Source of the DNA: a virus
Taxonomy: Duplodnaviria; Heunggongvirae; Uroviricota; Caudoviricetes
Strand: one strand, 5' to 3'
Length of the DNA: 64,000 nucleotides
IMG/VR virus record: IMGVR_UViG_3300033463_000001
Location: 211,298 to 275,297 of that record
Shown: piece after piece, positions 9,893 through 42,806 of the stretch
How the letters are laid out: the number at the start of each line of letters is the position of its first letter
Numbering within the stretch: the first letter of the stretch is position 1
Translations under genes and position numbers: made by a program
Notes under the pieces: model-generated
What the model was told of the DNA's origin: nothing
Databases searched by the model: none
Seen by the model: only the letters and a program-made list of their open reading frames with translations

Positions 9893-9901
9893 TATTTATT
9901 G
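9893..9901 (+). promoter_or_regulatory. TATTTATTG motif 13 nt upstream of ATG (recurring, 5 copies)
   Basis: Exact 9-mer shared with 14456, 32838, 33409 and 52065, always 13-19 nt upstream of a + strand structural gene start; consensus (G/A)TATTTATTGnTAG. Confidence 0.4.
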
Positions 9902-9914
9902 ATAAACGTTAGAA

Positions 9915-10631
9915 ATGGATACAATAGCGGATACACTACGTGGAACGATTTTGTCACTCAAGCAAATTAGTGATAGGCTGAAAAAGCTCGCTAATGCGCT
10001 TGGTGATATGCCATCTGGTACCACAATATACACATCAATCGAAGAGATAAATAATACAGTTTATGAAAGTGCCGCCTCTATTATCGAGTACCTTCAAGGC
10101 GAAGATAGTGGCGCTACAAACACTGCCATTTTGGAGGCTATTGGTGCAATTGAATTTGATAAGTCGGGATTAGCTACAGATATTCAAGCCAATGAAATAA
10201 TTAGCGACGTCAGTGGCCTACCAAGTGAATTACACACAGTATTGGAAACCGTGTCCGGTATAACTGGTTATGCCATACAGGGTAGTGGTACTCCTGAAGA
10301 TGTGAACCTCACTGTTGTAGATGACAAAATAGGAGACATTGCAGAAATTGTAAGTGCGATTACTGGTGGTGAGATTGATTGTACAATACCAGGTAACTAC
10401 GCTCTCGAAACAACACTTGTTAATGCTCGCGATTCAATCCTAAATGAAGTTAGTGGCGTAAGTCGCGAAATAGGTACAGACACAGACCAGGTTACAGTGC
10501 ATGAAAAACTAGATTGGCTCGTCGACTCAACGGGGGAATGCACATTTGTAAGAAACAACGATGGAACCGATACATGGACGCTTATTCTAGATAGGAGTGC
10601 GTCGATTAACAATAACACACTAAACGTATAG
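9915..10631 (+). CDS. fibre-like module protein, paralog family (copy 1 of 3)
   Basis: 238 aa. Shares block FDKxGLATDxQANEIIxDVSGLPxEL...VLExVSGITGYAxQGSGxxEDVNLTVVDxKIGD with ORFs 14483..15277 and 17871..18548, each preceding a DGR target gene. Confidence 0.6.
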   Translation: MDTIADTLRGTILSLKQISDRLKKLANALGDMPSGTTIYTSIEEINNTVYESAASIIEYLQGEDSGATNTAILEAIGAIEFDKSGLATDIQANEIISDVSGLPSELHTVLETVSGITGYAIQGSGTPEDVNLTVVDDKIGDIAEIVSAITGGEIDCTIPGNYALETTLVNARDSILNEVSGVSREIGTDTDQVTVHEKLDWLVDSTGECTFVRNNDGTDTWTLILDRSASINNNTLNV

Positions 10632-10639
10632 TCTAAGAT

Positions 10640-11944
10640 ATGGATGTAACAAAAATACAAAAAGGTAATACAACGTACAATATTTCTGTACAAGGTGTTG
10701 CAACACAAGTAGAACGTGCTGAGGCTGCTGCAAATCAAGCTACAGTTGCTGCCGTTGCTGCTCAACAGGCCGTGACATCAACACACGAGCTTGTCGGTGG
10801 TGAATATGTTCCTAGCTTCGACGCTACAGTAACTTATCATGTTGGTAATTTAGTATTCCATCGTAATAACGACGATGGTCATGTGTTCAGGTGTATTGCA
10901 GAGAGAGCTCCAGGGCCTTGGGTTGGTTCAACGGATGCTTCTTTCGTTCAGACATCTTGCTACGGTGAGATAATGGATATGCGTGGCCACGATATAAATA
11001 TTGAGAGTGTAACTGTTAAACTAAAACCGGACATGGTTAAAGAGTCTCTTGGTGGAGCACCTGCGCTTTCTGGTATCACTGTATTCTTAAAAACAGGAGT
11101 CGGTGATGAAGGCTCGACTTATTCCGGAGTAACAGATGAGAATGCAGAATATACTTTCTCAAACATCCCTTGGGGAACTCAGTATACAATTTTCACAGAA
11201 ACTGAAGCCGTATCTGGTTATGCAGACCCACGGCCGAAGTCTGTTCAATCTGCGAACATGTACCACCGAAACGTAACGCTTTTCTATAGGTTGCAAATGA
11301 CGGGATGGTATGTGATTACAAAGAGTAGTGTTGAACACATTGATATCGCAGACTGGGATACATCAAACAACGACCAGGCAGAGTTACTTGGTTATCAAAA
11401 TAGTCAGTTTAGGTTTGCTATTAAGATTAAAGGACGCGCAACTCAACAGGGCGCATGGTCTAATCCAGGAAACGTAGAAATTAATATTCCGAGCTTATAC
11501 TATGCAAGTACTAACTCTGCCACGTTCATGACAGATGCCTACCTTGCAGATGTTGAGTATCCGGCAGGTGGTGAAGTTTATAGCCGTCTCGCTTTCAACA
11601 CAAAGGCGATTCTTGATAATAAAGGTACACAAGGTGTTCAAGCTGCTACGTTCTGCCATAACGCTACAGTAGAAATCGGAGGTGAAACATATCATGGATG
11701 CTTGCCGCTGCTTGCTATGCTCAACCTGTTTACTAATGGTAGTGCGGAGCGTACTGAGTTCTATAACACCATGAACGAATACCTGACGTGGCTTGGTGGT
11801 ACGCCACTGTTTCTTCGCAGTGGCACCTGGTGGTCCAGCGAGCAGTACAATAACGAGCAAGCTTGGTACATCTACCATGGTAGTCTGAGCAACCACAACA
11901 AGACTAACACGAACAACGTTGCGGTGCCGTTTTACGACCTTTAA
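10640..11944 (+). CDS. DGR target protein 1 (putative receptor-binding protein) with C-terminal variable region
   Basis: 434 aa. The last ~42 codons (...TWWSSEQYNNEQAWYIYHGSLSNHNKTNTNNVAVPFYDL) match TR1 except at TR adenines. N-terminus is paralogous to the other two targets. Confidence 0.8.
   Translation: MDVTKIQKGNTTYNISVQGVATQVERAEAAANQATVAAVAAQQAVTSTHELVGGEYVPSFDATVTYHVGNLVFHRNNDDGHVFRCIAERAPGPWVGSTDASFVQTSCYGEIMDMRGHDINIESVTVKLKPDMVKESLGGAPALSGITVFLKTGVGDEGSTYSGVTDENAEYTFSNIPWGTQYTIFTETEAVSGYADPRPKSVQSANMYHRNVTLFYRLQMTGWYVITKSSVEHIDIADWDTSNNDQAELLGYQNSQFRFAIKIKGRATQQGAWSNPGNVEINIPSLYYASTNSATFMTDAYLADVEYPAGGEVYSRLAFNTKAILDNKGTQGVQAATFCHNATVEIGGETYHGCLPLLAMLNLFTNGSAERTEFYNTMNEYLTWLGGTPLFLRSGTWWSSEQYNNEQAWYIYHGSLSNHNKTNTNNVAVPFYDL
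11818..11943 (+). repeat. DGR variable region VR1
   Basis: ~126 nt nearly identical to 12513-12638. There are 6 mismatches, all A in the TR copy (A->C,G,T,C,G,C in VR), plus one G/C at the extreme 3' end. Confidence 0.85.
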
Positions 11945-11979
11945 TTTTTAGTTTAAAGCTGCTTGCAAGGCATATTGTA

Positions 11980-12450
11980 ATGCCGCCGCACAGCTATACA
12001 AAGAAATACAAAAAAAGACAATTCATAAAAACATCACACGCAGTGGCGCGGATAACTAAAGTTCAGATTTTTAACTCCGTTCTTGGCCTATTAAAGTACC
12101 TAGAACGTACAAAAGACCAGTTTCCGAAAGGCGCAGGACGCGAATATAAGGAACGGATATCACATATCGTGCTATACGAGCTGATTCCGTTTTTGAAAGA
12201 CGCGTACGAAAGCAAAGGAGACCAGAAACGGAGGTTGGATGCCCTGAAGTCGTTTAAGAACAGTTTGGATATTCTGAGCTATGTTTTGAAACTATGTTCG
12301 GATTTCCACTGGATTTCAGTTACACACATGGCGAAAATATCTCTTATGATAGATGATATTGAAACACAATGTAATAGCTGGATTAAACGAACGAAGGCAT
12401 CCGGGTCAGAGTCCGAAGACTTACTGGTCGACGGAGAGTGCCCTAAATAA
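11980..12450 (+). CDS. avd: accessory variability determinant-like small basic helical protein
   Basis: 156 aa ORF between target and TR/RT, the canonical Avd position. Basic and helix-rich, with an FPKGAGREYKERI segment resembling four-helix-bundle Avd family proteins. Confidence 0.55.
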   Translation: MPPHSYTKKYKKRQFIKTSHAVARITKVQIFNSVLGLLKYLERTKDQFPKGAGREYKERISHIVLYELIPFLKDAYESKGDQKRRLDALKSFKNSLDILSYVLKLCSDFHWISVTHMAKISLMIDDIETQCNSWIKRTKASGSESEDLLVDGECPK

Positions 12451-12512
12451 AGGTGGCAACATACTCACCCCCAGCAATGGAAGAGTTATATCGATAATTG
12501 TTGCAAAAACGA
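12451..12512 (+). other. conserved TR leader element (copy 1)
   Basis: AGGTGGCAACATACTCACCCCCAGCAATGG...AGTTATATCGATA immediately 5' of TR1. Homologous leaders precede TR3 (16988-17059) and TR2 (20588-20651). Confidence 0.5.
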
Positions 12513-12638
12513 CAGTGGCAACTGGTGGTCCAGCGAGCAGTACAATAACGAACAAGCTTGGTACATCAACAATGGTAGTCTGAACAACAACAACAAGACT
12601 AACACGAACAACGTTGCGGTGCCGTTTTACGAGCTTTA
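12513..12638 (+). repeat. DGR template region TR1
   Basis: Non-coding copy of VR1, rich in AAC (Asn) codons in the VR frame. It ends 3 nt before the RT start codon. Confidence 0.85.
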
Positions 12639-12641
12639 TTC

Positions 12642-13877
12642 ATGGAAAATAACGTAGTGGATATTGAAGAACTTTGGCTGGCAGAACAAGACTGTGCCAA
12701 GAGAAAAAGGAGTAGCACTGCGTGTGATGAATTTATGATAAACGAAGCCGCCAATGTGGCTAAGCTTTGGAAGGAACTAAACGACGGAACGTATGAGATA
12801 GGTTATAGCACAGCGTTTGTTGTAACAAGGCCTAAATTGCGAGAGGTGTTTGCGGCTGATTTTAGGGATAGGATTGCGCACCACTATATAATCAATAGGA
12901 CAATAAACCTGTTTGAAGCCCACTTTATTGAAGACAGCTACAATTGTCGTAAAGGAAAGGGCACGACATACGCAATTAAACGCATAGACGAACAGATACG
13001 CCAGATTTCCAATAACTTCACAACTGATTGTTGGATTCTGAAGTGTGATATCAAGAATTTTTTTATGAGCATCAACAAGAATATCCTTTGGAGAATGCTC
13101 GAAAAGTTCTTGATTGAAAACTACCAAGGAGACGATAAAGCATTTGTAATTAGCCTGACAAAGCAGATTGTAATGCATCGTCCGGAATTGAAATGTATCA
13201 GGCACGGTACGAATGACTTATGGGATGCGCTTGACACAGGGAAAAGTCTGTTTAACAGTCTACCGTACAAAGGTCTTGCAATAGGCAACCTGACCAGTCA
13301 GATATTTGCAAACTTCTACCTCTCGTATTTCGATAAGTGGATAATCAGCAAACCAGGACTTGGGTACGGAAGATATGTGGACGACTTCATCGTATTAGCA
13401 AAGACAAAAGAGGAGTTGTTATCTCTAATACACGAAATTAGAGCATACCTCAAGGATAATCTTGAACTCCAACTACACCCGAAGAAGTTCTACCTGCAGC
13501 ACTACACGAAGGGTGTGAAGTTCACAGGGTACGTCTGGAAGATGAATCGCATCTACACAAGCAACCGGACTGTAAACAATGCTATTATGATGGTTAGAGA
13601 ATGGAACATGCATCCAGGATTGCCTGGTATAGAGCGATACATACAGAGATATAACTCATTTATGGGTTTCTTGCTATACACGTGTTCGTATAATATACGC
13701 AAGCGAATATGGGAGATGCTTGATGCAAAAATAAAGGAATTGATATATATTGATAAAGATTACAAAGCCGTCCATATCAAGGACAGATTCAACCGAATAA
13801 ACCTAAGAGCAAATGCAATACGGAATCATAAACATAGAAAGCGAAAACTTCGCTCAGTCAAAAAAAATAGCCGATAA
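12642..13877 (+). CDS. DGR-type reverse transcriptase 1
   Basis: 411 aa; RT motifs including IGNLTSQIFANFYL (DGR-specific I/LGxxxSQ instead of QGxxxSP) and YGRYVDDFIV (YxDD catalytic box). Confidence 0.9.
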   Translation: MENNVVDIEELWLAEQDCAKRKRSSTACDEFMINEAANVAKLWKELNDGTYEIGYSTAFVVTRPKLREVFAADFRDRIAHHYIINRTINLFEAHFIEDSYNCRKGKGTTYAIKRIDEQIRQISNNFTTDCWILKCDIKNFFMSINKNILWRMLEKFLIENYQGDDKAFVISLTKQIVMHRPELKCIRHGTNDLWDALDTGKSLFNSLPYKGLAIGNLTSQIFANFYLSYFDKWIISKPGLGYGRYVDDFIVLAKTKEELLSLIHEIRAYLKDNLELQLHPKKFYLQHYTKGVKFTGYVWKMNRIYTSNRTVNNAIMMVREWNMHPGLPGIERYIQRYNSFMGFLLYTCSYNIRKRIWEMLDAKIKELIYIDKDYKAVHIKDRFNRINLRANAIRNHKHRKRKLRSVKKNSR

Positions 13878-14376
13878 CCTATATTTTATCCGCGTAAAAT
13901 TAGGCGAAGACGGTAGTGGTTTTACACAAGCAATTGAGGCCGTCGTAACGCACGAACCAACAGAAGAAGATTTTGCCGGCTTACTGAATAGCTATACCGA
14001 TGGTGTTAAGCGTCATAAGATTGACGACGTGGATACATACGATAAGTCAGATAATGTGAACGGTTTCATTATAAATGGCGAGCATGCTTGGTTTGATAAG
14101 ACGACGCGCATGGGAATTATCAATTTGTTAGAATGTCAACAAAAGACCGGTGAGACATTCACAACTATAGACATCAACGATAAGCTATATGAACTAACAA
14201 TCAGTAGAGGGCTTGAGATGATGCAACAATTGGAGGTGTACGCCGGACAGTGTTTCTTGCGCACGGCGATACACAAGAAGAATATACAAGCACTTGATTC
14301 CGTTAGTGACATTGTAGCATATGACATAACGGATGGCTATCCGGAGCAACTGGAGTTCACACTGGCAGCACTCTAA
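13813..14376 (+). CDS. DGR-module-associated ~187 aa protein, paralog family (copy 1 of 3)
   Basis: Shares NxFxINGxxAWxDKxTRxGxxNLL...LEVYAGQC...TxGYPExLEF with 17302..17868 and 21941..22501, each located at the 3' end of a module. Overlaps the RT 3' end by 65 nt in another frame. Confidence 0.55.
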   Translation: MQYGIINIESENFAQSKKIADNLYFIRVKLGEDGSGFTQAIEAVVTHEPTEEDFAGLLNSYTDGVKRHKIDDVDTYDKSDNVNGFIINGEHAWFDKTTRMGIINLLECQQKTGETFTTIDINDKLYELTISRGLEMMQQLEVYAGQCFLRTAIHKKNIQALDSVSDIVAYDITDGYPEQLEFTLAAL

Positions 14377-14390
14377 CTGACTGGATTTGG

Positions 14391-14424
14391 GCGAGAACAC
14401 GATGCGTTGTTCTCGCTTTCTTTG
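14391..14424. terminator. Rho-independent terminator
   Basis: GCGAGAACA-cgatgcg-TGTTCTCGC hairpin followed by TTTCTTTG. Confidence 0.6.
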
Positions 14425-14455
14425 TCTATGTCCGTGGACAAACGCAGCAATTTGA

Positions 14456-14464
14456 TATTTATTG
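14456..14464 (+). promoter_or_regulatory. TATTTATTG motif (copy 2)
   Basis: GATATTTATTGTTAG, 19 nt upstream of ATG 14483. Confidence 0.4.
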
Positions 14465-14482
14465 TTAGATGTAGATACAATT

Positions 14483-15277
14483 ATGACAATAACAGAGTTA
14501 TTTAGAAAAGCAATCATGAGTCTCTCCGGGATTTCTCAAGTCCTCAAAGAGCTCTATAACTGGTCACACGAGAGTGTTGCCACAAAGGAGTCTGTTCAAC
14601 AGGAGCTTACCAACAAGGCCACCAAGCAGAATGTGACGGATGCACAATCCGCTATTATTGGTGCAATCAACAGCAAACCTGTTACACCGGCTACTGACCT
14701 AACACCGGTTACACAGGTCTTGGGTAGCTATAACTCCAGCAAAGGTACTATTCAAGACCAAATCGGCAATATTGTATTCGATAAGAATGGACTCGCTACT
14801 GATGCGCAGGCTAATGAAATTATCGGAGATGTCAGTGGGCTACCTGGTGAGTTGAATGCCGTTTTGGAAAGTGTTTCTGGTATTACCGGATATGCTTACC
14901 AAGGAAGTGGGTCTTCAGAGGATGTTAATCTCACAGTAGTAGACAATAAGATTGGTGACGTACAGGAGGTAATCGACACAATTAACGGCGGAACGATGGA
15001 TATTAATATTCCATCGGATTACGTTCGCGACACAACGGTTACAAGTGCCAAAACTGAGATTCTTAGCGCTATTACTGCTGTTAGTGGCTCGGTTGGTGTT
15101 GACAATAGCGGCGTGACTGTACACGAAAAAGTTGATACAATAGAAGCAATGGTGCGATACCTGTTCAATGGGTGTAGCATTGTAGAGAATAGTGACGATG
15201 TCGGAACAGGAAATCAAGGATATACAGTAATACTTGACCAGACAGCATCGATTAACGACGGAATACTTACATTATAA
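14483..15277 (+). CDS. fibre-like module protein, paralog family (copy 2 of 3)
   Basis: ORF track begins at TTG 14462; first ATG is 14483 (MTITELFRK). Strong identity to 9915..10631 over FDKNGLATDAQANEIIGDVSGLPGEL...VHEKVD. Confidence 0.6.
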   Translation: MTITELFRKAIMSLSGISQVLKELYNWSHESVATKESVQQELTNKATKQNVTDAQSAIIGAINSKPVTPATDLTPVTQVLGSYNSSKGTIQDQIGNIVFDKNGLATDAQANEIIGDVSGLPGELNAVLESVSGITGYAYQGSGSSEDVNLTVVDNKIGDVQEVIDTINGGTMDINIPSDYVRDTTVTSAKTEILSAITAVSGSVGVDNSGVTVHEKVDTIEAMVRYLFNGCSIVENSDDVGTGNQGYTVILDQTASINDGILTL

Positions 15278-15278
15278 C

Positions 15279-16841
15279 ATGAGCGCGAATAAAATTACAA
15301 AATTTCAGAAGGGTAACGTTATATACGACCTGTTTGCTCCCGGATTGGATGAAGCAGTAGCAAGTGCTGCTACCGCACAGAATAACGCCGAGTATGCTGC
15401 CAACACGGCTTCGTACGCTGCGGCTATGACATACCATATGCTTGGACTTGAGAATGTTCCTTTGTGGAACCAGTCCGATGCCTATGCAAAGAATGACATT
15501 GTTCGTAAGACGGTTGTTTCTGGGGGCGTGTCCAGTGACCATATCTTCCGTGCCAACAACGAAATTGCTGCAGGAACGGCGTGGAATGATGACCTATGGA
15601 CGGATACATCTGTGTGGGGTGAGATTCAAAACATGAAGGTTGGTGCTTTGTCTGTTGAGACGGTGCGTGTTACAGGATATATGTTCCAGGATGGCTCACT
15701 TATACCGGTTCCGGAAGGAGAGGCATTGAATGTTGTCTATAACGAGACCAACCACTTTTATTCCTTTAAGGCAGGCCTATGTGAGTTCTCAGTACCGCGT
15801 GGTACGGAATATGGCATCATTTATAGCCCGATTAATGGTTACAATACTCCGTCTGCTGCCTACTATAACGCTAATATGTCAACGCGTAGTATCACAGCTA
15901 CATATCACTATCGTCAAAGTGGTTGGTTTGGTGTTAAGACTGTAACTACAACGGTTAACAACACATCAAGTGTAAGCATCGAAGAAGTTCCAATGTCAGA
16001 GTGGAACCAGGCTGATAATGATGCATCAATAGGTATTAAGTTCTACGGACCTCTTGGTCACTACTTCCTGCCGAAAAACTGGAAAGACTATAGAACAACA
16101 GGTGTTCAATTCTCTTCTCTAAATATTGAGTTCTCTACCACTACTGCGGCAAACATGGAAGCATTGGTTATTGACCGGTATTTCCGCATTGGAACAGAGC
16201 TAACCTATCAAAAGAGTGGTGGTGTTGCAACGTGCATCATTACAAAGGCACAGGCAGACACTTGGTATCAAGGCAACGACGTTACCGATACCGACGGTGA
16301 CTTAATTGTCAGCGGACTTTCTTCTGAGGATAAAACAGCGTATCAAGCAGTTATCACGGCTCGTTATGACTATGGATTGAGTCCTGCGGTTGGTGGACAT
16401 ACGTTAAGTTCTAACAATGCAACACTGACGAATGACTGGGATGCCTTTGATGCAACGCAACAACTTGTTGAGATGTGGCAGGCATTTGCCAGCTTTAACC
16501 TTCAATCATTAACTGCGTGCGCTGCAGTGTGGGCACGTGGTAAATCGCTAACCATTGGAGAGTCAACGTATTACGGAAACTTACCTACTGCCGGTATGGT
16601 TCTCAGCCTTAGTGGAAACAGAAGCCAAATTCAACAGCATCTCAAGACAATCGGCGTCGACGCAGCCTATGCTGAAGCGTTTACCATCGGTACGGCGTCG
16701 TGGGGTTCCGGCAGCGCCGGTAACACCTGGTCGTCCTCACAGTTTAATGCTAGCATCGCGTGGTGCTTGAATACGTCTGGGGCGTTGCTCAGCCACAACA
16801 AGAGCTACAGTTACTCGGCGGTGGCCGTGTTCGACCTATAA
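15279..16841 (+). CDS. DGR target protein 3 with C-terminal variable region
   Basis: ATG at 15279 (MSANKITKFQKGN), directly after the upstream stop; N-terminus paralogous to 10640 (MDVTKIQKGN). The last ~43 codons match the orphan TR3 except at TR adenines. Confidence 0.8.
   Translation: MSANKITKFQKGNVIYDLFAPGLDEAVASAATAQNNAEYAANTASYAAAMTYHMLGLENVPLWNQSDAYAKNDIVRKTVVSGGVSSDHIFRANNEIAAGTAWNDDLWTDTSVWGEIQNMKVGALSVETVRVTGYMFQDGSLIPVPEGEALNVVYNETNHFYSFKAGLCEFSVPRGTEYGIIYSPINGYNTPSAAYYNANMSTRSITATYHYRQSGWFGVKTVTTTVNNTSSVSIEEVPMSEWNQADNDASIGIKFYGPLGHYFLPKNWKDYRTTGVQFSSLNIEFSTTTAANMEALVIDRYFRIGTELTYQKSGGVATCIITKAQADTWYQGNDVTDTDGDLIVSGLSSEDKTAYQAVITARYDYGLSPAVGGHTLSSNNATLTNDWDAFDATQQLVEMWQAFASFNLQSLTACAAVWARGKSLTIGESTYYGNLPTAGMVLSLSGNRSQIQQHLKTIGVDAAYAEAFTIGTASWGSGSAGNTWSSSQFNASIAWCLNTSGALLSHNKSYSYSAVAVFDL
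16709..16838 (+). repeat. DGR variable region VR3
   Basis: 130 nt versus 17060-17189 at a constant offset of 351 nt. About 20 mismatches, all at TR adenines, plus one terminal G/C. Confidence 0.85.
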
Positions 16842-16987
16842 ATTTAGGTTCGCAAGTTACAGCATTGGGTCATTGCAGACACAATGCGCTATATAATACA
16901 TAAGTGAACATTGACATATACAGCAAGAGGTTAAATTCTCGACGCAATGTAAGCCAGCATGCTGATACTTACGGGTTAGGCAGCGCG

Positions 16988-17059
16988 CATTAATCATAGG
17001 TGGCCTACCACTTTCCCCCTGCTTGCAGGATAAGTTATATCGATAGAGTAGGCGTATAA
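16988..17059 (+). other. conserved TR leader element (copy for orphan TR3)
   Basis: AGGTGGCCTACCACTTTCCCCCTGCTTGCAGG...AGTTATATCGATAGAG, homologous to the leader 5' of TR1. Confidence 0.5.
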
Positions 17060-17189
17060 CGGCAACGCCGGTAACACCTGGTCGTCCTCACAGTATAATG
17101 CTAACAACGCGTGGTACTTGAATACGTCTGGGGCGTTGAACAACAACAACAAGAACAACAGTTACTCGGCGGTGGCCGTGTTCGAGCTA
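17060..17189 (+). repeat. DGR template region TR3 (orphan: no adjacent avd or RT)
   Basis: Intergenic, AAC-rich (aacaacaacaacaagaacaac) copy of VR3. Confidence 0.8.
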
Positions 17190-17192
17190 GGA

Positions 17193-17204
17193 ATGAAATG
17201 CTAA
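17193..17204 (+). pseudogene. vestigial RT start (ATG AAA TGC TAA) at the position where RT genes begin after TR1 and TR2
   Basis: In modules 1 and 3 an RT ATG lies 3-5 nt after the TR end. Here an ATG at the same offset is followed by a stop after 3 codons. Confidence 0.4.
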
Positions 17205-17301
17205 TAGCAGATTTAATTACATTGGCGTGCCGGAGACGGCTCGTTTAGGAAGGTCGAGAATACCTCTTTGCTGTATTTATTGTAAGACAAAAACATGTTA
17301 T

Positions 17302-17868
17302 ATGGAATATATAATTGAGAGATATGCGTCGGACGATTTCCGTACGTCAGAAAAGATTGGAAATAGGTACATCATACGCACAAAAATTGAAGACTTGCCG
17401 GAAAGTGAGTCTGTTCGCTGCGTCGAAAGTATCATTGACCATAGTCCGGCACAAGCAGATTATGATGCACAGGTAGCAAGCTACATAGGAGATGTGCAAC
17501 AGGAGAAACTGTCATGCATACGGCGCTATGATGTGTCGGATAACGTCAATATCTTCTACATTGATGAGCACGCAACATGGCTTGACAAAGATACTCGCGT
17601 CGGTCTGGACAACCTCATTAAGAAACAAAAGGAGGCCGGTGCTACAGAAACGACCTTGTGGTTAGCTGGTGTCAGCTTTGTTATCGAGATTGACCATGCA
17701 ATAGACCTTCTCAGACAACTTGAGATTTACGCAGGTCAATGCTACAACAAGACAGAGGAACATAAGGCAGCAGTTCTTGCAACTACAACAATAGCTGGCG
17801 TTGAGAACTACGACTACACAACAGGTTATCCGGAGCCACTGCACTTTACGATTAGTAATAATGAATAA
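17302..17868 (+). CDS. DGR-module-associated ~188 aa protein, paralog (copy 2 of 3)
   Basis: ORF track starts at 17227. Paralog alignment and ATG 17302 (MEYIIERYASDDF) give 188 aa. Conserved NIFYIDEHATWLDKDTRVGLDNL...LEIYAGQCYN...TTGYPEPLHF. Confidence 0.55.
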   Translation: MEYIIERYASDDFRTSEKIGNRYIIRTKIEDLPESESVRCVESIIDHSPAQADYDAQVASYIGDVQQEKLSCIRRYDVSDNVNIFYIDEHATWLDKDTRVGLDNLIKKQKEAGATETTLWLAGVSFVIEIDHAIDLLRQLEIYAGQCYNKTEEHKAAVLATTTIAGVENYDYTTGYPEPLHFTISNNE

Positions 17869-17870
17869 CC

Positions 17871-18548
17871 ATGCCAGAGTCTATTAGCCAATTGTTTAAC
17901 AAGACCATACTCAGTCTAACAGGGATATCTACATTCCTGAGTAATATCTACGCCTGGCTTACAAGCAACGTTGCTACGAAGAGTGACGTTTCTACAGCCA
18001 CGCAGAATGGTGCTACAAAGACAGACCTTAGCACATCAACCAATACCATTGTAACTGCTATCACGAATAAGCCAGTGACACAGATTGGACCTATAATGGA
18101 TGTGCTGGGTGACTTCAATGCAGGTAATGGTACAATACAAGACCAGATTGCAGACCTTGGAACTGCTGTTGGGCAGATTGAGTTTGATAAGACCGGGTTG
18201 GCAACAGAGAGTGGAACAACGAGCGCCGTTACGGCAGCGGCCGGGAGTGTTATCAATGCGCTACCAAAAGACTACGCACAGAGAGGGGAGAATAGTGGTG
18301 CAACTAATAGTGCAATTCTAAACGCTTTGAGCGATGATAGTGGAAATACTGTTGTTGATATTCTTACCGACGAAACAAGTGGCCTATCAGCCATAAGTAA
18401 TGCAGTTTCAGGACTGCCTGAAGTAATGAAAAATATGTATGCGGCACACTTTGAACAAAACGAAGATGGTGAGGATACGTATACAATGGTAATGCCGTTA
18501 ACAGCCATAGTTAGTGAAACCGGCGAAGCAATCACAATAAACATTTAA
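17871..18548 (+). CDS. fibre-like module protein, paralog family (copy 3 of 3, diverged)
   Basis: 225 aa; retains the IQDQI...FDKTGLATE block and the same position in the module. Confidence 0.5.
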   Translation: MPESISQLFNKTILSLTGISTFLSNIYAWLTSNVATKSDVSTATQNGATKTDLSTSTNTIVTAITNKPVTQIGPIMDVLGDFNAGNGTIQDQIADLGTAVGQIEFDKTGLATESGTTSAVTAAAGSVINALPKDYAQRGENSGATNSAILNALSDDSGNTVVDILTDETSGLSAISNAVSGLPEVMKNMYAAHFEQNEDGEDTYTMVMPLTAIVSETGEAITINI

Positions 18549-18556
18549 TACAATAT

Positions 18557-20128
18557 ATGTCAACACCTACAAAAATAGCTACTAGATTAAAATCAGCAAT
18601 AACCGGTGAAGAGTTCTTTATTGGAACTGTTGGTACTCAAGAAAAGGTTTCTGTATTATTGTCTGCACCTTCCAGTGTGGATTGGACACAATATTCCGTA
18701 GTAGTACAAAATATATCACAAACTGGTTCCCAGACTCTCAATTTAACATCTGAGGCATCTGGTGCAACAACCGTCGGTGTATGTGCTTTCAATATGCCAA
18801 TGGGCGTTATATACGAAGTGCAATTACCGACAATTACGGGATACGTATCTCCAATTAACCAGCGATTCTCAGCAACATCAGCAATGAGACAACTTATTCA
18901 TGAATACACAGCTGAAGGTGAGAAATTCGAACAAGTAACAATACTTGCATCCTTTGCATCTGCAGGAGGTACTGTTGCGTTATTGGAAAATATGACTGTT
19001 ACAGCGCTGTGCACCGATGGAACATCTTATTCAGGTATGTTTAATGCTAGTGGAATGTGTACTATTACCAATATCCCATATGGTAAAACATACACAATTC
19101 AATACCCGGATGTAATTAGTAGTGACGGGTCTATTCCATTTCATCATGACCGCAATAATGAACAGTTTACCGCCGGAGAACCATCAAGGATGCTTAATGT
19201 TACCTATTATGAGGGTATCATTGGTATTCATGGTGTTGACAGGTACGGAAACCTATTAAGTCTAGAAGAAATTGAATCTGGCATCACAAACGGAACGATA
19301 GTTGCTTCCGACATTATAGCAGGATATTACAATGATTCAAGGCTATCTCAGTCAACACGTGGTGATGGTTCAGGTATAGGTAATGCTGTTGTATGGAGTG
19401 TGTGGGATAATAAAATGCAAGGTTCCTGGATGAACCCGAATGGAAGCACTGTTAATGGCGTACCATTGAATAGCTCAGAAGGATATCACCTTGATAAATC
19501 GCGCTGTGCTGGAAAATATTATACGTTGCTAATCTCAGACTACGCAACAAGTAATAGCTATGCTTCAATCATTAAAGACTGTACCGCGCGAACTATAAGA
19601 GCACAAAAACTTTATGCTGTATATAACGATATTGTATATCGCCAAGTAGAATATAGTGACAATCAATGGAAATCTGTAACAGAGACCCCTGTTATTGTTT
19701 ATACTCATGATTCTATTACAAACCTTAACGGTGTAACAGGCGTGACTTTCTATAGCACTGCGCAAGGCGCAACTGATGAAGATAGTAGCGATATCGCATT
19801 TACTGCTGATGTTTTGAACTCTGCCGCAACAAAGAATGGTTTTACGGGTTCATACGCACAGATGAAAGGAATGGCAGACAACTGGGCTAATAACACAACC
19901 AATCCAGGTGCTTATACGGCGTACAGACTCTACAAAGCTTTAGGCATTGAGACTAAGATTACATCTGCTTCCAGCAACGCGACGTCTCACAACATCCGTA
20001 ACGGCTACTGGTGGACGTCTTGTCAGGCCAGTTCGACTTATGGAGTCTTACTGCTTAGTGGCTCCTTCGACATCGGCAACAAGTACTACGGTAGCTCTGT
20101 GTTGGTTTTGTTCGACCCTTTTGAATAA
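18557..20128 (+). CDS. DGR target protein 2 with C-terminal variable region
   Basis: 523 aa. C-terminus ...GYWWTSCQASSTYGVLLLSGSFDIGNKYYGSSVLVLFDPFE corresponds to TR2 (GNWWTSCQNSSTNGVKLNSGSFNNNNKNNSNSVLVLFEP). Confidence 0.8.
   Translation: MSTPTKIATRLKSAITGEEFFIGTVGTQEKVSVLLSAPSSVDWTQYSVVVQNISQTGSQTLNLTSEASGATTVGVCAFNMPMGVIYEVQLPTITGYVSPINQRFSATSAMRQLIHEYTAEGEKFEQVTILASFASAGGTVALLENMTVTALCTDGTSYSGMFNASGMCTITNIPYGKTYTIQYPDVISSDGSIPFHHDRNNEQFTAGEPSRMLNVTYYEGIIGIHGVDRYGNLLSLEEIESGITNGTIVASDIIAGYYNDSRLSQSTRGDGSGIGNAVVWSVWDNKMQGSWMNPNGSTVNGVPLNSSEGYHLDKSRCAGKYYTLLISDYATSNSYASIIKDCTARTIRAQKLYAVYNDIVYRQVEYSDNQWKSVTETPVIVYTHDSITNLNGVTGVTFYSTAQGATDEDSSDIAFTADVLNSAATKNGFTGSYAQMKGMADNWANNTTNPGAYTAYRLYKALGIETKITSASSNATSHNIRNGYWWTSCQASSTYGVLLLSGSFDIGNKYYGSSVLVLFDPFE
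20003..20119 (+). repeat. DGR variable region VR2
   Basis: 117 nt versus 20652-20768. About 20 mismatches, all at TR adenines, plus a terminal G/C. Confidence 0.85.
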
Positions 20129-20169
20129 TTAAAAGCGCTAGGACATTCCTGTCCAGCGCATAAACAGCA

Positions 20170-20583
20170 ATGGGAAAAATTGTAGATAAATACACAGACG
20201 GTAGGGAGATACCTCTATATAAAGCAACGGAAACATTGCTTTATGACGTTGATAATTTGATTAATTTTTTACAGAAAGATAGGAAGCATACTCTTGGACA
20301 ACACATGCTTCTCCTTGTTTTGGATATGCTGGATTGCGTGGCGGTAGCATACGATTTTCCAGAAAGAAAAGTTGAACAATTAAAGTTGTATATTTCGAAG
20401 TATAACAACTTGGCAACAATTCTTAAAATGTGTGAAATAAAGGGTTATCTAATGAACAATAATAAGAACTATTATGTTGAGATGATTAAACCTTTAGGAA
20501 ACGCATATAAACAAGCTAAAGGTTGGTTAGTATCCGCAAACAAAGAAGCCGGAGTCTGTATGGATAATACAGAGAGCGCGTAA
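20170..20583 (+). CDS. avd: accessory variability determinant-like protein
   Basis: 137 aa helical ORF between target 2 and TR2. The segment KDRKHTLGQHMLLLVLDML resembles the PRKHG region of known Avd proteins. Confidence 0.55.
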   Translation: MGKIVDKYTDGREIPLYKATETLLYDVDNLINFLQKDRKHTLGQHMLLLVLDMLDCVAVAYDFPERKVEQLKLYISKYNNLATILKMCEIKGYLMNNNKNYYVEMIKPLGNAYKQAKGWLVSANKEAGVCMDNTESA

Positions 20584-20587
20584 AATT

Positions 20588-20651
20588 TAGGGTGGCTATC
20601 TACTTTCTCCAGAAATGGGAAGTTAAGAATAAGATAATGATAGCGACATAC
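20588..20651 (+). other. conserved TR leader element (copy 3)
   Basis: AGGGTGGCTATCTACTTTCTCCAGAAATGGGAAGTTAAGAATAAGATAATGATAG; same architecture as the TR1 and TR3 leaders. Confidence 0.45.
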
Positions 20652-20768
20652 GGCAACTGGTGGACGTCTTGTCAGAACAGTTCGACTAATGGAGTCAAAC
20701 TGAATAGTGGCTCCTTCAACAACAACAACAAGAACAACAGTAACTCTGTGTTGGTTTTGTTCGAGCCT
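20652..20768 (+). repeat. DGR template region TR2
   Basis: AAC-rich copy of VR2 ending 4 nt before the RT2 ATG. The ORF-track 'protein' 20592..20780 is just its translation. Confidence 0.85.
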
Positions 20769-20772
20769 AAAT

Positions 20773-21996
20773 ATGAGTGAGTGGTGTACAATAGAAGAAG
20801 TATATGCTGCCTATCTTGACTGTAAAAAGCACAAAACAAGGTCTAGTTCATACGCAGAATTTGCTGCTAACGAAGCAATAAATTTGTATGAATTATGGCT
20901 TGATTTGAATAATCATACCTATAAAATTGGTTTAAGTGACGCATTTTGTGTTACACGGCCAAAAGTTAGGGAAGTATTCGCTGCTAGGTTTCGCGACCGT
21001 ATAGTTCACCATTTGGTGATTATGCGATTGTTGCCTATATTTGAACAACATTTTATTGAAGATACGTATAATTGCCGAAAAGGGAAGGGTACGGATTACG
21101 GAATTAATCGTGTATTGAATTTTACTAAAAACCACCCAAATGGTTGGATATTAAAGTATGATATAAGTTGTTTTTTCATGAGTATTAACAAAACTTTGTT
21201 AAACTCAATGCTGAAAACATTTATTTGCGATAATTATAGTAGGGATGACAAAGACGAGATTTTATCTTTGGTAGAAATGATTGTCATGCATCGCCCTGAA
21301 TTGCTTTGTATAAGGAAAGGTGATTTAAGCTTATGGAATCAATTACAAAAAGGAAAATCTTTATTTCGCAGCGACGGAAATCACGGCCTTGCAATTGGCA
21401 ACCTTACAAGCCAGATATTTGCGAATTTCTACATGTCGCAAATAGATAAATGGCTAGCAAGTATTGATGGTGTAGAATATGGAAGGTATGTTGATGATGC
21501 AATTTTAGTATCTGACGATAAAAATTTATTACTATCTATACTCCCCAAACTGCGTGAGCGATTAAGCGTTGAGCTTGATTTAGAACTACATAAAAAGAAA
21601 ATATACATACAACCAGTCAGGCATGGCGTTTCGTTTTTAGGGAGCGTAATTAAGAATGGGCGTTTATATGCAGGAAATCATACAGTTACAAATGCATTTA
21701 ATATAACGAAAGAGTTTGCGTGTAGGTTAGATAAGGAGAGTTGCGTTGAAAAATTTGCACAGCGATACAATTCTTATATGGGATATCTAATACATCGTAA
21801 AACATACGCAATCCGATGGAATCTATGGAATAATGTAGATGAAGAAACAAAAAAGTTTGTATACTTAACAAAACGCATGGGTTTAATGCGTGTAAGGGAT
21901 GTGTACAAAGAGAAAACTAAGCTAAAAAGTCAATATAAACATGATAAAAGAAACATTAGCAATAAACGACTGGGAGGAGTTGTCAAAGGCTTTTAA
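20773..21996 (+). CDS. DGR-type reverse transcriptase 2
   Basis: Start moved to ATG 20773 (MSEWCTIEEV), downstream of TR2. Motifs IGNLTSQIFANFYM and YGRYVDDAILV. About 50% identical to RT1 by eye. Confidence 0.9.
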   Translation: MSEWCTIEEVYAAYLDCKKHKTRSSSYAEFAANEAINLYELWLDLNNHTYKIGLSDAFCVTRPKVREVFAARFRDRIVHHLVIMRLLPIFEQHFIEDTYNCRKGKGTDYGINRVLNFTKNHPNGWILKYDISCFFMSINKTLLNSMLKTFICDNYSRDDKDEILSLVEMIVMHRPELLCIRKGDLSLWNQLQKGKSLFRSDGNHGLAIGNLTSQIFANFYMSQIDKWLASIDGVEYGRYVDDAILVSDDKNLLLSILPKLRERLSVELDLELHKKKIYIQPVRHGVSFLGSVIKNGRLYAGNHTVTNAFNITKEFACRLDKESCVEKFAQRYNSYMGYLIHRKTYAIRWNLWNNVDEETKKFVYLTKRMGLMRVRDVYKEKTKLKSQYKHDKRNISNKRLGGVVKGF

Positions 21997-22501
21997 GGTT
22001 GGTAATAAGCAATTCTATTACTTACGCATGTTCAAAAAAGACCTGCCTGGTGATTTGTGTGTTTGCTACACCGAATTAGTTGACCACCAACCAACACAAG
22101 AAGAAAAGGATGAGTTGTATGCAGCTTATCTTGCCGGAATGAAAAATATGGTAATAGACGAGATTGTCGCATATGATTCTTCTAGTGCCGTAAACAAATT
22201 CTATATCAACGGTATTGAAGCGTGGCTGGATAAACAGACTCGTGTTGGATTAGTGAACCTTCTGGAATCGCAAAAGAAAACAGAACACACTCGCACAACA
22301 CTTTGGTTTAATGGAACACCAATCGAGTTAGATATTGAAACAGCGCTCAATATGTTGTATGAGCTTGAGGTATACGCTGGCTTATGTTATAACCAAACGG
22401 AATTACATAAAGCCAATGTGTTAGCTTTAGTAAATATTGATGACGTCGAAAACTATGGCTACACAACAGGATATCCTGAATACCTCGAATTTGAGGTGTG
22501 A
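21941..22501 (+). CDS. DGR-module-associated ~186 aa protein, paralog (copy 3 of 3)
   Basis: KFYINGIEAWLDKQTRVGLVNLL...LEVYAGLCYN...TTGYPEYLEF. Confidence 0.55.
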   Translation: MIKETLAINDWEELSKAFKVGNKQFYYLRMFKKDLPGDLCVCYTELVDHQPTQEEKDELYAAYLAGMKNMVIDEIVAYDSSSAVNKFYINGIEAWLDKQTRVGLVNLLESQKKTEHTRTTLWFNGTPIELDIETALNMLYELEVYAGLCYNQTELHKANVLALVNIDDVENYGYTTGYPEYLEFEV

Positions 22502-42395: not shown

Positions 42396-42806
42396 TTATT
42401 TCTCAAGTAAAATGGTTAAACATTTCTTGATACCTGCTTCAAGAGCCAATTCATAAGTATCAAAATTTTCAGGTGTAAGTGCAATGCCACCAACGTCTTC
42501 ATGCAAAAGCCAAAAGTCTTTAGCAATTAAAGGTGTCCATTTTTTACTGCCTGATAATGGTGATGCTATTATTTGAATATTCTTCACTTCTATCAACCAC
42601 CTCTGAGCAACTGCGAGGGTCGGCGCGGAGAAAAATTCATAAGGTGTATTTACCTCGTAGCTTTTTGCGTTAAAATTGTCCTGGAGGCCATCTGTTTTGT
42701 GCACAAGCTCACCATCTCTATACGCTGAGTCTATAAACCACTTAAAACCTGCTTGTTTTAGAAGTTTAGATGTTTCAAGACTTACATATGTTTCGTGTTG
42801 GTTCAT
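42396..42806 (-). CDS. paralog family A protein, copy 3 of 4
   Basis: MNQHETYVSLETSKLLKQAGFKW...SAPTLAVAQRWLIEV...YELALEAGIKKCL. Confidence 0.55.
   Translation of the reverse strand: MNQHETYVSLETSKLLKQAGFKWFIDSAYRDGELVHKTDGLQDNFNAKSYEVNTPYEFFSAPTLAVAQRWLIEVKNIQIIASPLSGSKKWTPLIAKDFWLLHEDVGGIALTPENFDTYELALEAGIKKCLTILLEK

Follow-up and report, generated by a model that had tools for sequence, protein, structure and literature searches.

A putative cis-acting RNA module upstream of the template repeats in three diversity-generating retroelement units of a Caudoviricetes virus

Introduction

In diversity-generating retroelements (DGRs), the priming, processivity and stop of the reverse transcriptase (RT) have so far been studied in one system, that of the Bordetella phage BPP-1, with the RNA module located downstream of the template repeat (TR). 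The elements described there are a primer strand (Sp47-56, with A56, G57 and C58), the cPRT Stop duplex formed by Sp59-70 with avd369-379, a 2-bp UUCG hairpin, A-minor contacts of G79-A80-A81 and a 13-nt Thumb Ring, and the cDNA ends at avd383-387 (bioRxiv 10.1101/2023.10.23.563531). The upstream piece required in BPP-1 is the last 20 nt of avd only, most of the RNA machinery being 3' of the TR (bioRxiv 10.1101/2023.10.23.563531). The BPP-1 spacer corresponds to Rfam family RF03022 (Phage_DGR), listed as RT-10 by Weinberg et al. 2017, whose speculation was that DGRs are served by other RT motifs as well; one of their motifs, RT-15 (RF03018), has an unassigned function (PMC5737381). Here we describe a leader of about 60 nt that precedes each of three TRs in a 64,000-nt stretch of a Caudoviricetes virus (IMG/VR record IMGVR_UViG_3300033463_000001, positions 211,298 to 275,297). 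This whole stretch is hereafter the window, and positions are counted from its first letter.

In many DGRs, including those of gut Bacteroidota phages, the TR abuts the RT gene and leaves no room for a spacer. A survey of other DGRs limited folding to 40 nt on the upstream side and 100 nt on the downstream side of each TR (bioRxiv 10.1101/2023.10.23.563531), so that an upstream module would be missed. The window contains three DGR units, all on the + strand; units 1, 2 and 3 are also written W1, W2 and W3, and L-numbers denote loci elsewhere. An earlier note on this DNA had proposed that a related, structured RNA element stands before all three TRs. Our comparative sequence analysis indicates that the stretch 5' of each TR is a real folded RNA element common to many DGRs.

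Architecture of the leader element

A common architecture is found 5' of all three TRs, which start at 12512, 17059 and 20650. In it, a 6-bp helix (P1) surrounds a hairpin with a tetraloop cap (P2/P3) and a single strand (J) of 12-15 nt that is rich in A. From 5' to 3', the order is a hairpin and a GAGAGYGC block at the end of avd, the strand S1, A(A/U)GG (AGGUG in the window), P1 with P2/P3 and J, a spacer of 5-8 nt, the TR and the strand S1'. The core motif is about 60 nt long with one internal stem-loop, and its defining features are a covarying P1 (6 bp) and P2 (4-5 bp), a J of 12-15 nt starting with UA, and a G directly 5' of P1; A(A/U)GG and UAAGAAYAAG are its conserved sequence blocks. 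P2 follows the P1 arm after one nucleotide and reads ACUN.../...NAGU or GCUN.../...NAGC, its inner stem often carrying a GNRA, UNCG or CUUG tetraloop. The consensus of J is UAAGA-AYAAGAnAGU, next to which a shorter type, UAUAUCGAUAAU, occurs.

The three P1 helices of the window all differ in sequence (GCAACA/UGUUGC, GCCUAC/GUAGGC and GCUAUC/GAUAGC), and the distance from the P1 3' arm to the TR is 5-8 nt. In unit 1, an irregular hairpin precedes the block GGAGAGTGCC (12433-12442) in the 3' end of avd1. S1 (AAUAAAG, 12446-12452) pairs with S1' (CUUUAUU, 12634-12640) in the unconstrained minimum free energy (MFE) fold of 12436-12650, and S1' ends 1 nt 5' of the RT1 AUG at 12642. A GUG linker (12453-12455) follows S1 and leads to the P1 5' arm (GCAACA, 12456-12461), which is supported by folds, covariance model and covariation. 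The P2/P3 hairpin (12463-12486; ACUC/GAGU, inner CCA-GCAA-UGG at 12471-12480) is the same in the MFE and centroid structures. The single-stranded J (UAUAUCGAUAAU, 12487-12498), of the RT1-lineage type, leads into the P1 3' arm (UGUUGC, 12499-12504) and the spacer (12505-12511).

In unit 2, S1 (UCAUAG, 16994-16999) pairs at 5/6 positions with S1' (CUAGGA, 17187-17192). The GUG linker (17000-17002) precedes the P1 5' arm (GCCUAC, 17003-17008), found in folds and by two covariance models, R1 and R2, described below. The P2/P3 hairpin (17010-17035; ACUU/AAGU, inner CCUG-CUUG-CAGG at 17018-17029) belongs to the family fold of -12.3 kcal/mol, J (UAUAUCGAUAGA, 17036-17047) is of the same type as in unit 1, and the P1 3' arm (GUAGGC, 17048-17053) is followed by the spacer 17054-17058. 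In unit 3, S1 (AUUUAGG, 20585-20591) pairs with S1' (CCUAAAU, 20766-20772) in the MFE fold of 20578-20785, and S1' abuts the RT3 AUG at 20773. Between them lie the GUG linker (20592-20594), the P1 5' arm (GCUAUC, 20595-20600; folds and covariance model), the P2/P3 hairpin (20602-20623; ACUU/AAGU, inner CCA-GAAA-UGG at 20609-20618, z-score -2.4), a J of the RT3-lineage type (UAAGAAUAAGAUAAU, 20624-20638), the P1 3' arm (GAUAGC, 20639-20644) and the spacer 20645-20649.

These assignments refine the picture drawn from the sequence by the earlier note. The position of its leader of about 60 nt stands, whereas its extent has to be enlarged: S1 at 12446-12452 overlaps the avd1 stop codon (12448-12450), and further upstream the GAGAGYGC block and hairpin are found in the last ~40 nt of avd. 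The statement that the leader is not simply the 3' coding region of avd is mostly right, with the exceptions of this overlap and of locus L270, where avd runs into the P2 loop. The A/T-rich stretch noticed before the TR is present and corresponds to the single-stranded J, the last 5-8 nt before the TR being the spacer, and the 'CCCC..GG' part of the element turns out to be a small hairpin with a GCAA, CUUG or GAAA tetraloop. The GAGAG(Y)GC block is common to W1, W3, L001, L241, L268 and L270 despite differing encoded amino acids; we found no pairing partner for it.

At L270 (895-1341), the avd open reading frame (ORF) spans S1 and the P1 5' arm and stops in the P2 loop, so the RNA element can overlap coding sequence. 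We also notice that S1' ends 0-1 nt 5' of the RT1 and RT3 start codons (12634-12644 and 20766-20775). S1:S1' pairing would thus cover the site where RT translation starts, and a transcript in use as template might be unable to serve as RT mRNA, and vice versa.

Detection of the leader in the window and in other DGRs

The string GGTGGC-N5-ACT occurs four times in the window, against 0.28 expected by chance. Three occurrences lie at the leaders (12452, 16999 and 20591); the fourth, at 42478 on the minus strand, is in coding sequence without leader architecture and was rejected as a chance match. Aligned with MAFFT, the three leaders have 68% mean column identity.

A covariance model, R1, was built from W3 and five foreign loci, with units 1 and 2 left out. 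Over the whole window, on both strands and at E<=10, it returned only 20587-20648 (60.6 bits), 12448-12508 (20.8 bits) and 16995-17057 (14.2 bits), with E-values, rough for both models, of 0.002 for the unit 1 leader and 0.17 for that of unit 2. The claim of a related element 5' of all three TRs is thereby borne out. A second model, R2, was built from 39 R1 hits; units 1-3 were in its training set, so their R2 scores are not independent. With filters off, R2 gave 48.6, 31.5 and 30.9 bits for the three leaders and 11.3 for the next best match in the window; with default filters it misses W1, whose score with filters off is 31.5 bits.

Of 240 RT-anchored loci drawn from collections of viruses, genomes and metagenomes, R2 matches about 60, and all its matches at E<=1 are on the RT strand. 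It also detects six loci that were fetched later and never used for training. Comparison of the 100 nt 5' of the TR shows the same upstream plan in many of 80 viral RT-anchored loci, also in their independent MFE folds. Scanning viral contigs for the exact strings of W1- and W3-type leaders gave chance matches and the L001 contig only. A generic search for any closing helix of >=6 bp near the TR was undiscriminating, with 90% at the true anchor versus ~62% at shifted anchors.

Some matches were set aside. Those at L125 and L225 lie downstream of the RT and are probably false, since ordinary coding sequence follows. Two motif copies at L211 come from a 765-bp tandem duplication (813-2342, from variable repeat (VR) to leader), which looks like a TR/VR mis-assembly. 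L177 (1993-2302) also has two motif copies.

Base pairing is conserved by compensatory changes

Across loci, the sequence of P1 varies while its complementarity is kept, and both P1 and P2 are visible in unaligned sequences. MAFFT alignments misplace gaps, one of them breaking P1, and model-based alignments were used in their place. Among 34 distinct matches, 97.8% of cells are paired; shifting the 3' partner lowers this to 27-49%. Both sides have changed in 10 of the 11 pairs, and the observed covariation score was reached by 0 of 500 shuffles. For the six P1 pairs, all of which covary, pairing is about 98% and drops to 21-63% with a shifted partner. In the closest subfamily (nine distinct sequences), P1 is paired at 100% and all 6/6 P1 pairs change on both sides. 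G-U pairs are frequent in the motif, which points to an RNA of the TR sense strand.

The idea of a structured RNA element is borne out by these data, with compensatory P1 and P2 in about 60 loci and covariation in the homologues. The check with RNAalifold that had been suggested for it succeeded in part: on a MAFFT alignment of 10 close leaders, P2/P3 was recovered and P1 was not, because the length of J is 12 or 15 nt.

The conservation of the helices also speaks to the thought that the leader is a DNA-level site, such as a promoter, the binding site of a protein or the place where cDNA integrates by recombination. The conserved A(A/U)GG and UAAGAAYAAG blocks would suit such a site. However, the helices are kept by compensatory changes, with G-U pairs on one strand only, and the VRs, where integration takes place, are without the element. 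No sigma-70-like promoter was found at the leaders, in a scan that did not cover Bacteroidota-type promoters. We consider a DNA site very improbable.

Position relative to the template repeat and the S1:S1' pairing

The 3' end of the motif lies within a few nt of the TR start across loci: in about 48 of them, 0-4 nt separate the end of the model hit from the point where TR/VR homology begins. As the hit spans 4 nt past P1, P1 ends 4-8 nt 5' of the TR. On the other side, the distance from TR end to RT start in the window is 4-5 nt by repeat-based TR ends, of which 1 and 0 nt remain after S1' in units 1 and 3. The TR-to-RT gap in matched loci has a median of 19 nt and a range of -23 to 71, with none above 100. 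Neither in the window nor in the matched loci is there room for a downstream module.

S1, the strand directly 5' of A(A/U)GG, is complementary to S1' at the TR 3' edge, which starts 0-7 nt past the end of TR/VR homology or overlaps its last few nt. Compensatory examples are AAAUAGAAA/UUUCUAUUU in L002, AUAAUCCAU/AUGGAUUAU in L048 and CGAAAUCCU/AGGAUUUCG in L046; the duplex reaches 12 bp in L026, and in L242 UUGUAAAA pairs with UUUUGCAA. Over 22 non-redundant loci, a locus's own S1:S1' duplex has a mean of -11.1 kcal/mol versus -6.4 for cross-locus duplexes (permutation p<5e-5), and the own S1' partner ranks first in 10 of them. In a fixed register, ten close relatives pair at 6.2/8 positions with their own partner versus 4.9/8 in cross pairings (p~0.001). 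When the full W1 and W3 RNAs are folded without constraints, the MFE structures include S1:S1' together with P1 and P2. The duplexes of the window are AAUAAAG/CUUUAUU in W1, AUUUAGG/CCUAAAU in W3 and UCAUAG/CUAGGA, with one mismatch, in W2. By sequence comparison, S1:S1' pairing is well supported across the family and weaker for the window's own duplexes. As S1:S1' pairs back across the TR, the modelled TR is a loop held between two helices, P1 and S1:S1'.

At the TR 3' edge we notice a further detail. Units 1-3 all have GAG in the TR against GAC in the VR (12633, 17186 and 20765), and the differing G is directly 5' of S1'; in unit 1 this is G12633, for which the VR has C. In W1-W3 this TR base faces a leader G; L001, L268 and L269 have A in place of the differing G. 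The G:G facing resembles Sp G57:TR G117 of BPP-1 and may mark the initiation site.

The orphan unit and a sister phage

Unit 2 lacks avd, and the earlier note stressed that it retains the element all the same. That observation is confirmed and can be extended, since unit 2 also lacks an RT and VR2 is still diversified. A sister contig, L263, has an RT 98% identical and is 96.9% identical to the window over 12.7 kb. Against a background divergence of 1-3.5%, VR1 differs by 15.9% and VR2 by 10.4%, whereas leader 1 has 1 difference in 86 nt, leader 2 has 0 in 89 and TR1 has 1 in 130. The leaders are the least diverged segments between the sister phages. All 17/17 VR1 strain substitutions stand opposite TR1 adenines, as do 13 of the 14 VR2 differences opposite TR2 adenines. 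The latter shows that mutagenesis of the orphan unit has gone on after the separation of the two strains. Unit 2 has neither avd nor RT, yet its VR2 is diversified, so leader plus TR works in trans.

Only 34 nt follow TR2 in unit 2, without RT coding sequence. From the sequence, all cis requirements of unit 2 are placed within the 383-nt non-coding segment 16844-17226, with RT and Avd acting in trans. The J type tracks RT lineage: UAYAUC... goes with RT1, L241, L242 and L267, and UAAGAAYAAG... with RT3, L270, L001, L268 and L269. The J of unit 2 is of the RT1 type, which points to RT1 as its partner, and RT1 probably serves unit 2 in trans.

The sister phage also has 3-nt insertions relative to the window, one (AAC) in TR2 (17138) and one in VR1 (11888), so template and target lengths are not fixed between strains. 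The 126 nt from VR2 to leader 2 (16844-16969) contain 1 difference from the sister phage, below the coding background, and TTGACA-N15-TAAATT within them might be a candidate promoter of the orphan TR transcript.

Organization of the three units

An RT adjoining a template repeat, a hallmark of DGRs, is present for RT1/TR1 and RT3/TR3, where the TR ends 1-5 nt 5' of the RT start codon, and TR/VR mismatches fall at TR adenines in 6/7, 11/14 and 16/17 cases for the window's three TR/VR pairs. Unit 1 comprises VR1 (11818-11943) in the 3' end of a target ORF (10640-11944), avd1 (11980-12450, 156 aa; a weak bAvd match of 24.3 bits, under the 40-bit cutoff), TR1 (12512-12633), with TR/VR differences at TR adenines, and RT1 (12642-13877, 411 aa; RVT_1 73 bits, >5000 homologues). 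In unit 2, VR2 (16709-16843) forms the 3' end of the target ORF 15234-16841, and the orphan template TR2 (17059-17186) was delimited by repeat comparison with VR2; tblastn detected no avd or RT remnant. Unit 3 has VR3 (20001-20119) in the 3' end of the target ORF 18557-20128, avd3 (20170-20583, 137 aa), assigned by position alone and without a Pfam match, TR3 (20650-20765), delimited by repeat comparison with VR3, and RT3 (20773-21996, 407 aa; RVT_1 match). ORFs of relatives in the avd-equivalent position carry PF22296.

RT1 and RT3 are 48% identical, so that two RT lineages occur within one phage, and similarity between Avd1 and Avd3 is undetectable by blastp. The sequences indicate that units 1-3 are old paralogues. 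The segment 9915-22501 is a triplicated cassette of the form X (225-271 aa) - target protein - [avd - leader - TR - RT] - Y (187-213 aa), in which the X, target and Y paralogues have 28-44% identity. A strong terminator-like hairpin (11 pairs, then a T-rich tail) stands at 14389-14418, directly after the Y1 gene that closes unit 1. A megablast of 9900-22500 against phage records gave no match, and a scan of viral contigs with the single protein RT1 found no relatives; those in viral contigs were reached through alignment-based scans.

Variants in other loci and cultured phages

The RTs of two cultured Bacteroides uniformis phages, F2 and Bacuni_F1, are 41-44% identical to RT1. Between avd and TR, both have a form of the element in which J contains an additional hairpin (R2 16.1 bits, E 0.14), and their S1:S1' duplex is 12 bp long, GUUAUCUG..AAAA with UUUU.CAGAUAAC. 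In the deposited records, leader and TR (L271 2262-2507 for F2, L272 for Bacuni_F1) are annotated as a hypothetical or 'putative DUF1566 domain protein' coding sequence.

Loci L007-L023, which R2 does not detect, form a sister variant (e.g. L007 at ~2270-2360 and ~2455-2470) in which J contains an additional hairpin and a second hairpin immediately precedes AAGG. The 5' strand of this second hairpin has another complement besides its 3' strand, namely a copy of that strand 8-15 nt 3' of the TR (e.g. CGUCAC/GUGACG). These two alternative pairings possibly constitute a switch.

Discussion

We propose, with a probability of roughly 0.6, that the leader is the core of a cis-acting structured RNA in the DGR template transcript, equivalent to the BPP-1 Spacer RNA and placed upstream. 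The comparative evidence covers its conservation, its base pairing, its fixed position relative to the TR and the trans activity of the orphan unit; protein binding, the priming site and the stop function are assigned by analogy with BPP-1. In the proposed mechanism, the module would dock the RT-Avd complex. S1:S1' would set the TR 3' edge beside the conserved GG region, and cDNA would be primed there in cis. P1, the hairpin and the following adenosines would act as a roadblock, at which cDNA would end a few nt before the helix, fixing the TR 5' border. The counterparts of the module in BPP-1 Spacer RNA would be the template:primer duplex, the cPRT Stop duplex with the stem-loop and the A-minor adenosines, and the Thumb Ring strand. 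Being self-contained, the module would allow a leader-TR cassette that lacks avd and RT, such as unit 2, to be served in trans, probably by RT1. The tie to TR RNA processing or RT priming suggested in the earlier note would likewise follow from this analogy.

Several points weigh against this proposal. The alignments used for the pair counts were fitted to the model, which favours structure. Single-sequence stability is weak (z -0.6 for W1 and -2.4 for W3), and W2 prefers, at its MFE of -15.7 kcal/mol, a different structure that is more stable by 3.4 kcal/mol than the family fold (-12.3). The S1:S1' duplexes of the window are 5-7 bp long and AU-rich, with energy ranks of 13, 9 and 3 of 22, not distinguishable from cross-locus pairings. 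The roles in binding, priming and termination are deduced from structure, and no equivalents of the Avd- or bRT-binding stem-loops were identified with confidence; the avd-end hairpin and the GAGAGYGC block are candidates. Covariance models detect no homology to BPP-1 Spacer RNA or RT-15, and the correspondence, drawn by analogy, is architectural only. Finally, priming chemistry is disputed even for BPP-1, for which one view holds that the 2'-OH of Sp A56 primes (bioRxiv 10.1101/2023.10.23.563531) and the opposing view that the 3'-OH of nicked RNA does (PMC5703328).

The alternative that survives best is a folded handle whose role is confined to bringing in RT or Avd, or to protecting or processing the TR transcript at its 5' end, with priming and termination set elsewhere, for example in the RT coding region or by the DNA target. 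Our data show structure and position and not chemistry at A(A/U)GG, the S1:S1' duplexes of the window are short, and the conserved hairpin and GAGAGYGC block are so far without a role, all of which a simple handle would accommodate. On the other hand, the orphan unit is diversified although its TR is followed by just 34 nt and RT coding sequence is lacking. Covariation of S1:S1' extends across families, this pairing flanks the 3' border of the TR, and P1 stands at a distance from the TR that agrees with that of the stop duplex in BPP-1. We regard a handle of this kind as unlikely, though a serious competitor to the upstream module.

A cis-regulatory RNA that controls RT expression, whether an attenuator, a riboswitch-like RNA or a translational operator, would explain why S1' lies 0-1 nt 5' of the RT1 and RT3 start codons, with S1:S1' occluding the start region. 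It is improbable, given that the orphan unit retains the element with no RT downstream and that the element tracks the TR start rather than the RT start (TR-to-RT gaps of -23 to 71 nt). There is no match to an Rfam riboswitch or other regulatory RNA and no terminator-like site at any leader. An intrinsic terminator had been considered separately and was rejected: none of 15 terminator-like sites is at a leader, and P1 is followed by AAAAAC, GUAUAA and GACAUA. The three units are clearly paralogous modules, but a functionless leftover of recent cassette triplication is scarcely credible and already contradicted by the comparative data, with RT1 and RT3 only 48% identical, Avd1 and Avd3 not detectably similar by blastp, three P1 helices that differ in sequence and are all paired, the motif in about 60 unrelated contigs, and leaders that diverge less between the sister phages than any other segment.

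If the upstream module is as we propose, a mechanism would be at hand for spacer-less DGRs, and the orphan Rfam motif RT-15 would gain a function. It would also give a sequence rule for locating TR borders and orphan TRs, allow RT-to-TR partners to be predicted in phages with multiple DGRs, and offer a compact cis element of ~60 nt for engineering DGR-based mutagenesis. Cultured Bacteroides phages with a variant element make the idea directly testable.

Comparison with known systems

The motif described here is absent from Rfam. No Rfam family matches the window (gathering threshold and E<=10) or 15 loci of the motif class, and no publication met with in literature searches describes an RNA module upstream of DGR TRs or connects RT-15 with DGR function. 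Specifically, RF03022 has no match in the window at gathering or E<=10, its BPP-1 positive control scoring 104.7 bits, and R2 finds nothing in BPP-1. The earlier note had drawn an analogy with the avd-TR region of the Bordetella phage; the analogy fits, only not to that region, since the BPP-1 upstream piece is just 20 nt of avd and what the leader resembles is the whole Spacer module moved upstream.

As in BPP-1, the order is a putative primer strand, a 2-3 nt G-containing linker, a putative stop-duplex strand, tetraloop hairpin, adenosines and a single strand of ~12 nt. In both, about 8 nt lie between the TR and the strand that partners the stop-duplex strand, and here the P1 3' arm would take the place of the avd strand; in the BPP-1 sequence, we count 8 nt from the end of the avd369-379 duplex to the TR. 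In both, the TR would be looped out between two helices, and in W1, W3 and L242 a G faces the first template G, like Sp G57:TR G117 in BPP-1. Unlike BPP-1, the whole module lies 5' of the TR, and the stop duplex would be a local helix instead of an upstream/downstream pairing. BPP-1 has a 144-nt TR-to-RT gap and a 140-nt Spacer, whereas here the RT starts almost directly after the TR, with S1' between.

Retron msr-msd RNA offers a second parallel. Its terminal complementary strands bring the template 3' end beside a conserved G-containing site, and the RT primes in cis. The complementary strands here would likewise place the template 3' end next to a conserved G-containing site. In contrast to retrons, the present loci have a DGR-clade RT, a putative Avd, TR/VR pairs and adenine-specific mutagenesis, and an msDNA-type structure is not implied.

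The closest likeness outside the motif class is RT-15. The GC-rich loci L060-L078 match RF03018, with 181 bits at L064 (2167-2361), and the match ends at the TR start. Like the leader, RT-15 stands directly upstream of a DGR TR, with a closing helix 5' of the TR and a purine-rich single strand before the 3' arm of that helix. Its plan runs ..CUGG, closing helix, three stem-loops, CGUAGAUA, 3' arm, ~7 nt and TR, the purine-rich strand ending in GAUAG. In RT-15, too, the strand 5' of GG pairs with the TR's last 6 nt (AAUCUG/CAGAUU, with variants AAUCCG/CGGAUU and GAUCUG/CAGAUC). The two differ in that RT-15 has 192 nt with a 5' hairpin and three internal stem-loops, against ~60 nt with one stem-loop here, and that its loci are GC-rich, unlike those of the present motif. 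The RT-15 model and that of the present motif do not detect each other's loci, and the window has no RF03018 match.

These comparisons lead us to a broader suggestion, offered tentatively and held at somewhat less than even odds. At least two architectures of DGR template RNA may exist, the BPP-1 type, with its module downstream, and an upstream-module type, in which the TR is preceded by all of primer strand, stop duplex, hairpin and A-rich strand. The second type would include the present motif, its extra-hairpin variants, among them those of F2 and Bacuni_F1, and RT-15. As the module is self-contained, free-standing leader-TR cassettes of that type could be added to a genome and would be served in trans, the type of J deciding which RT serves them.

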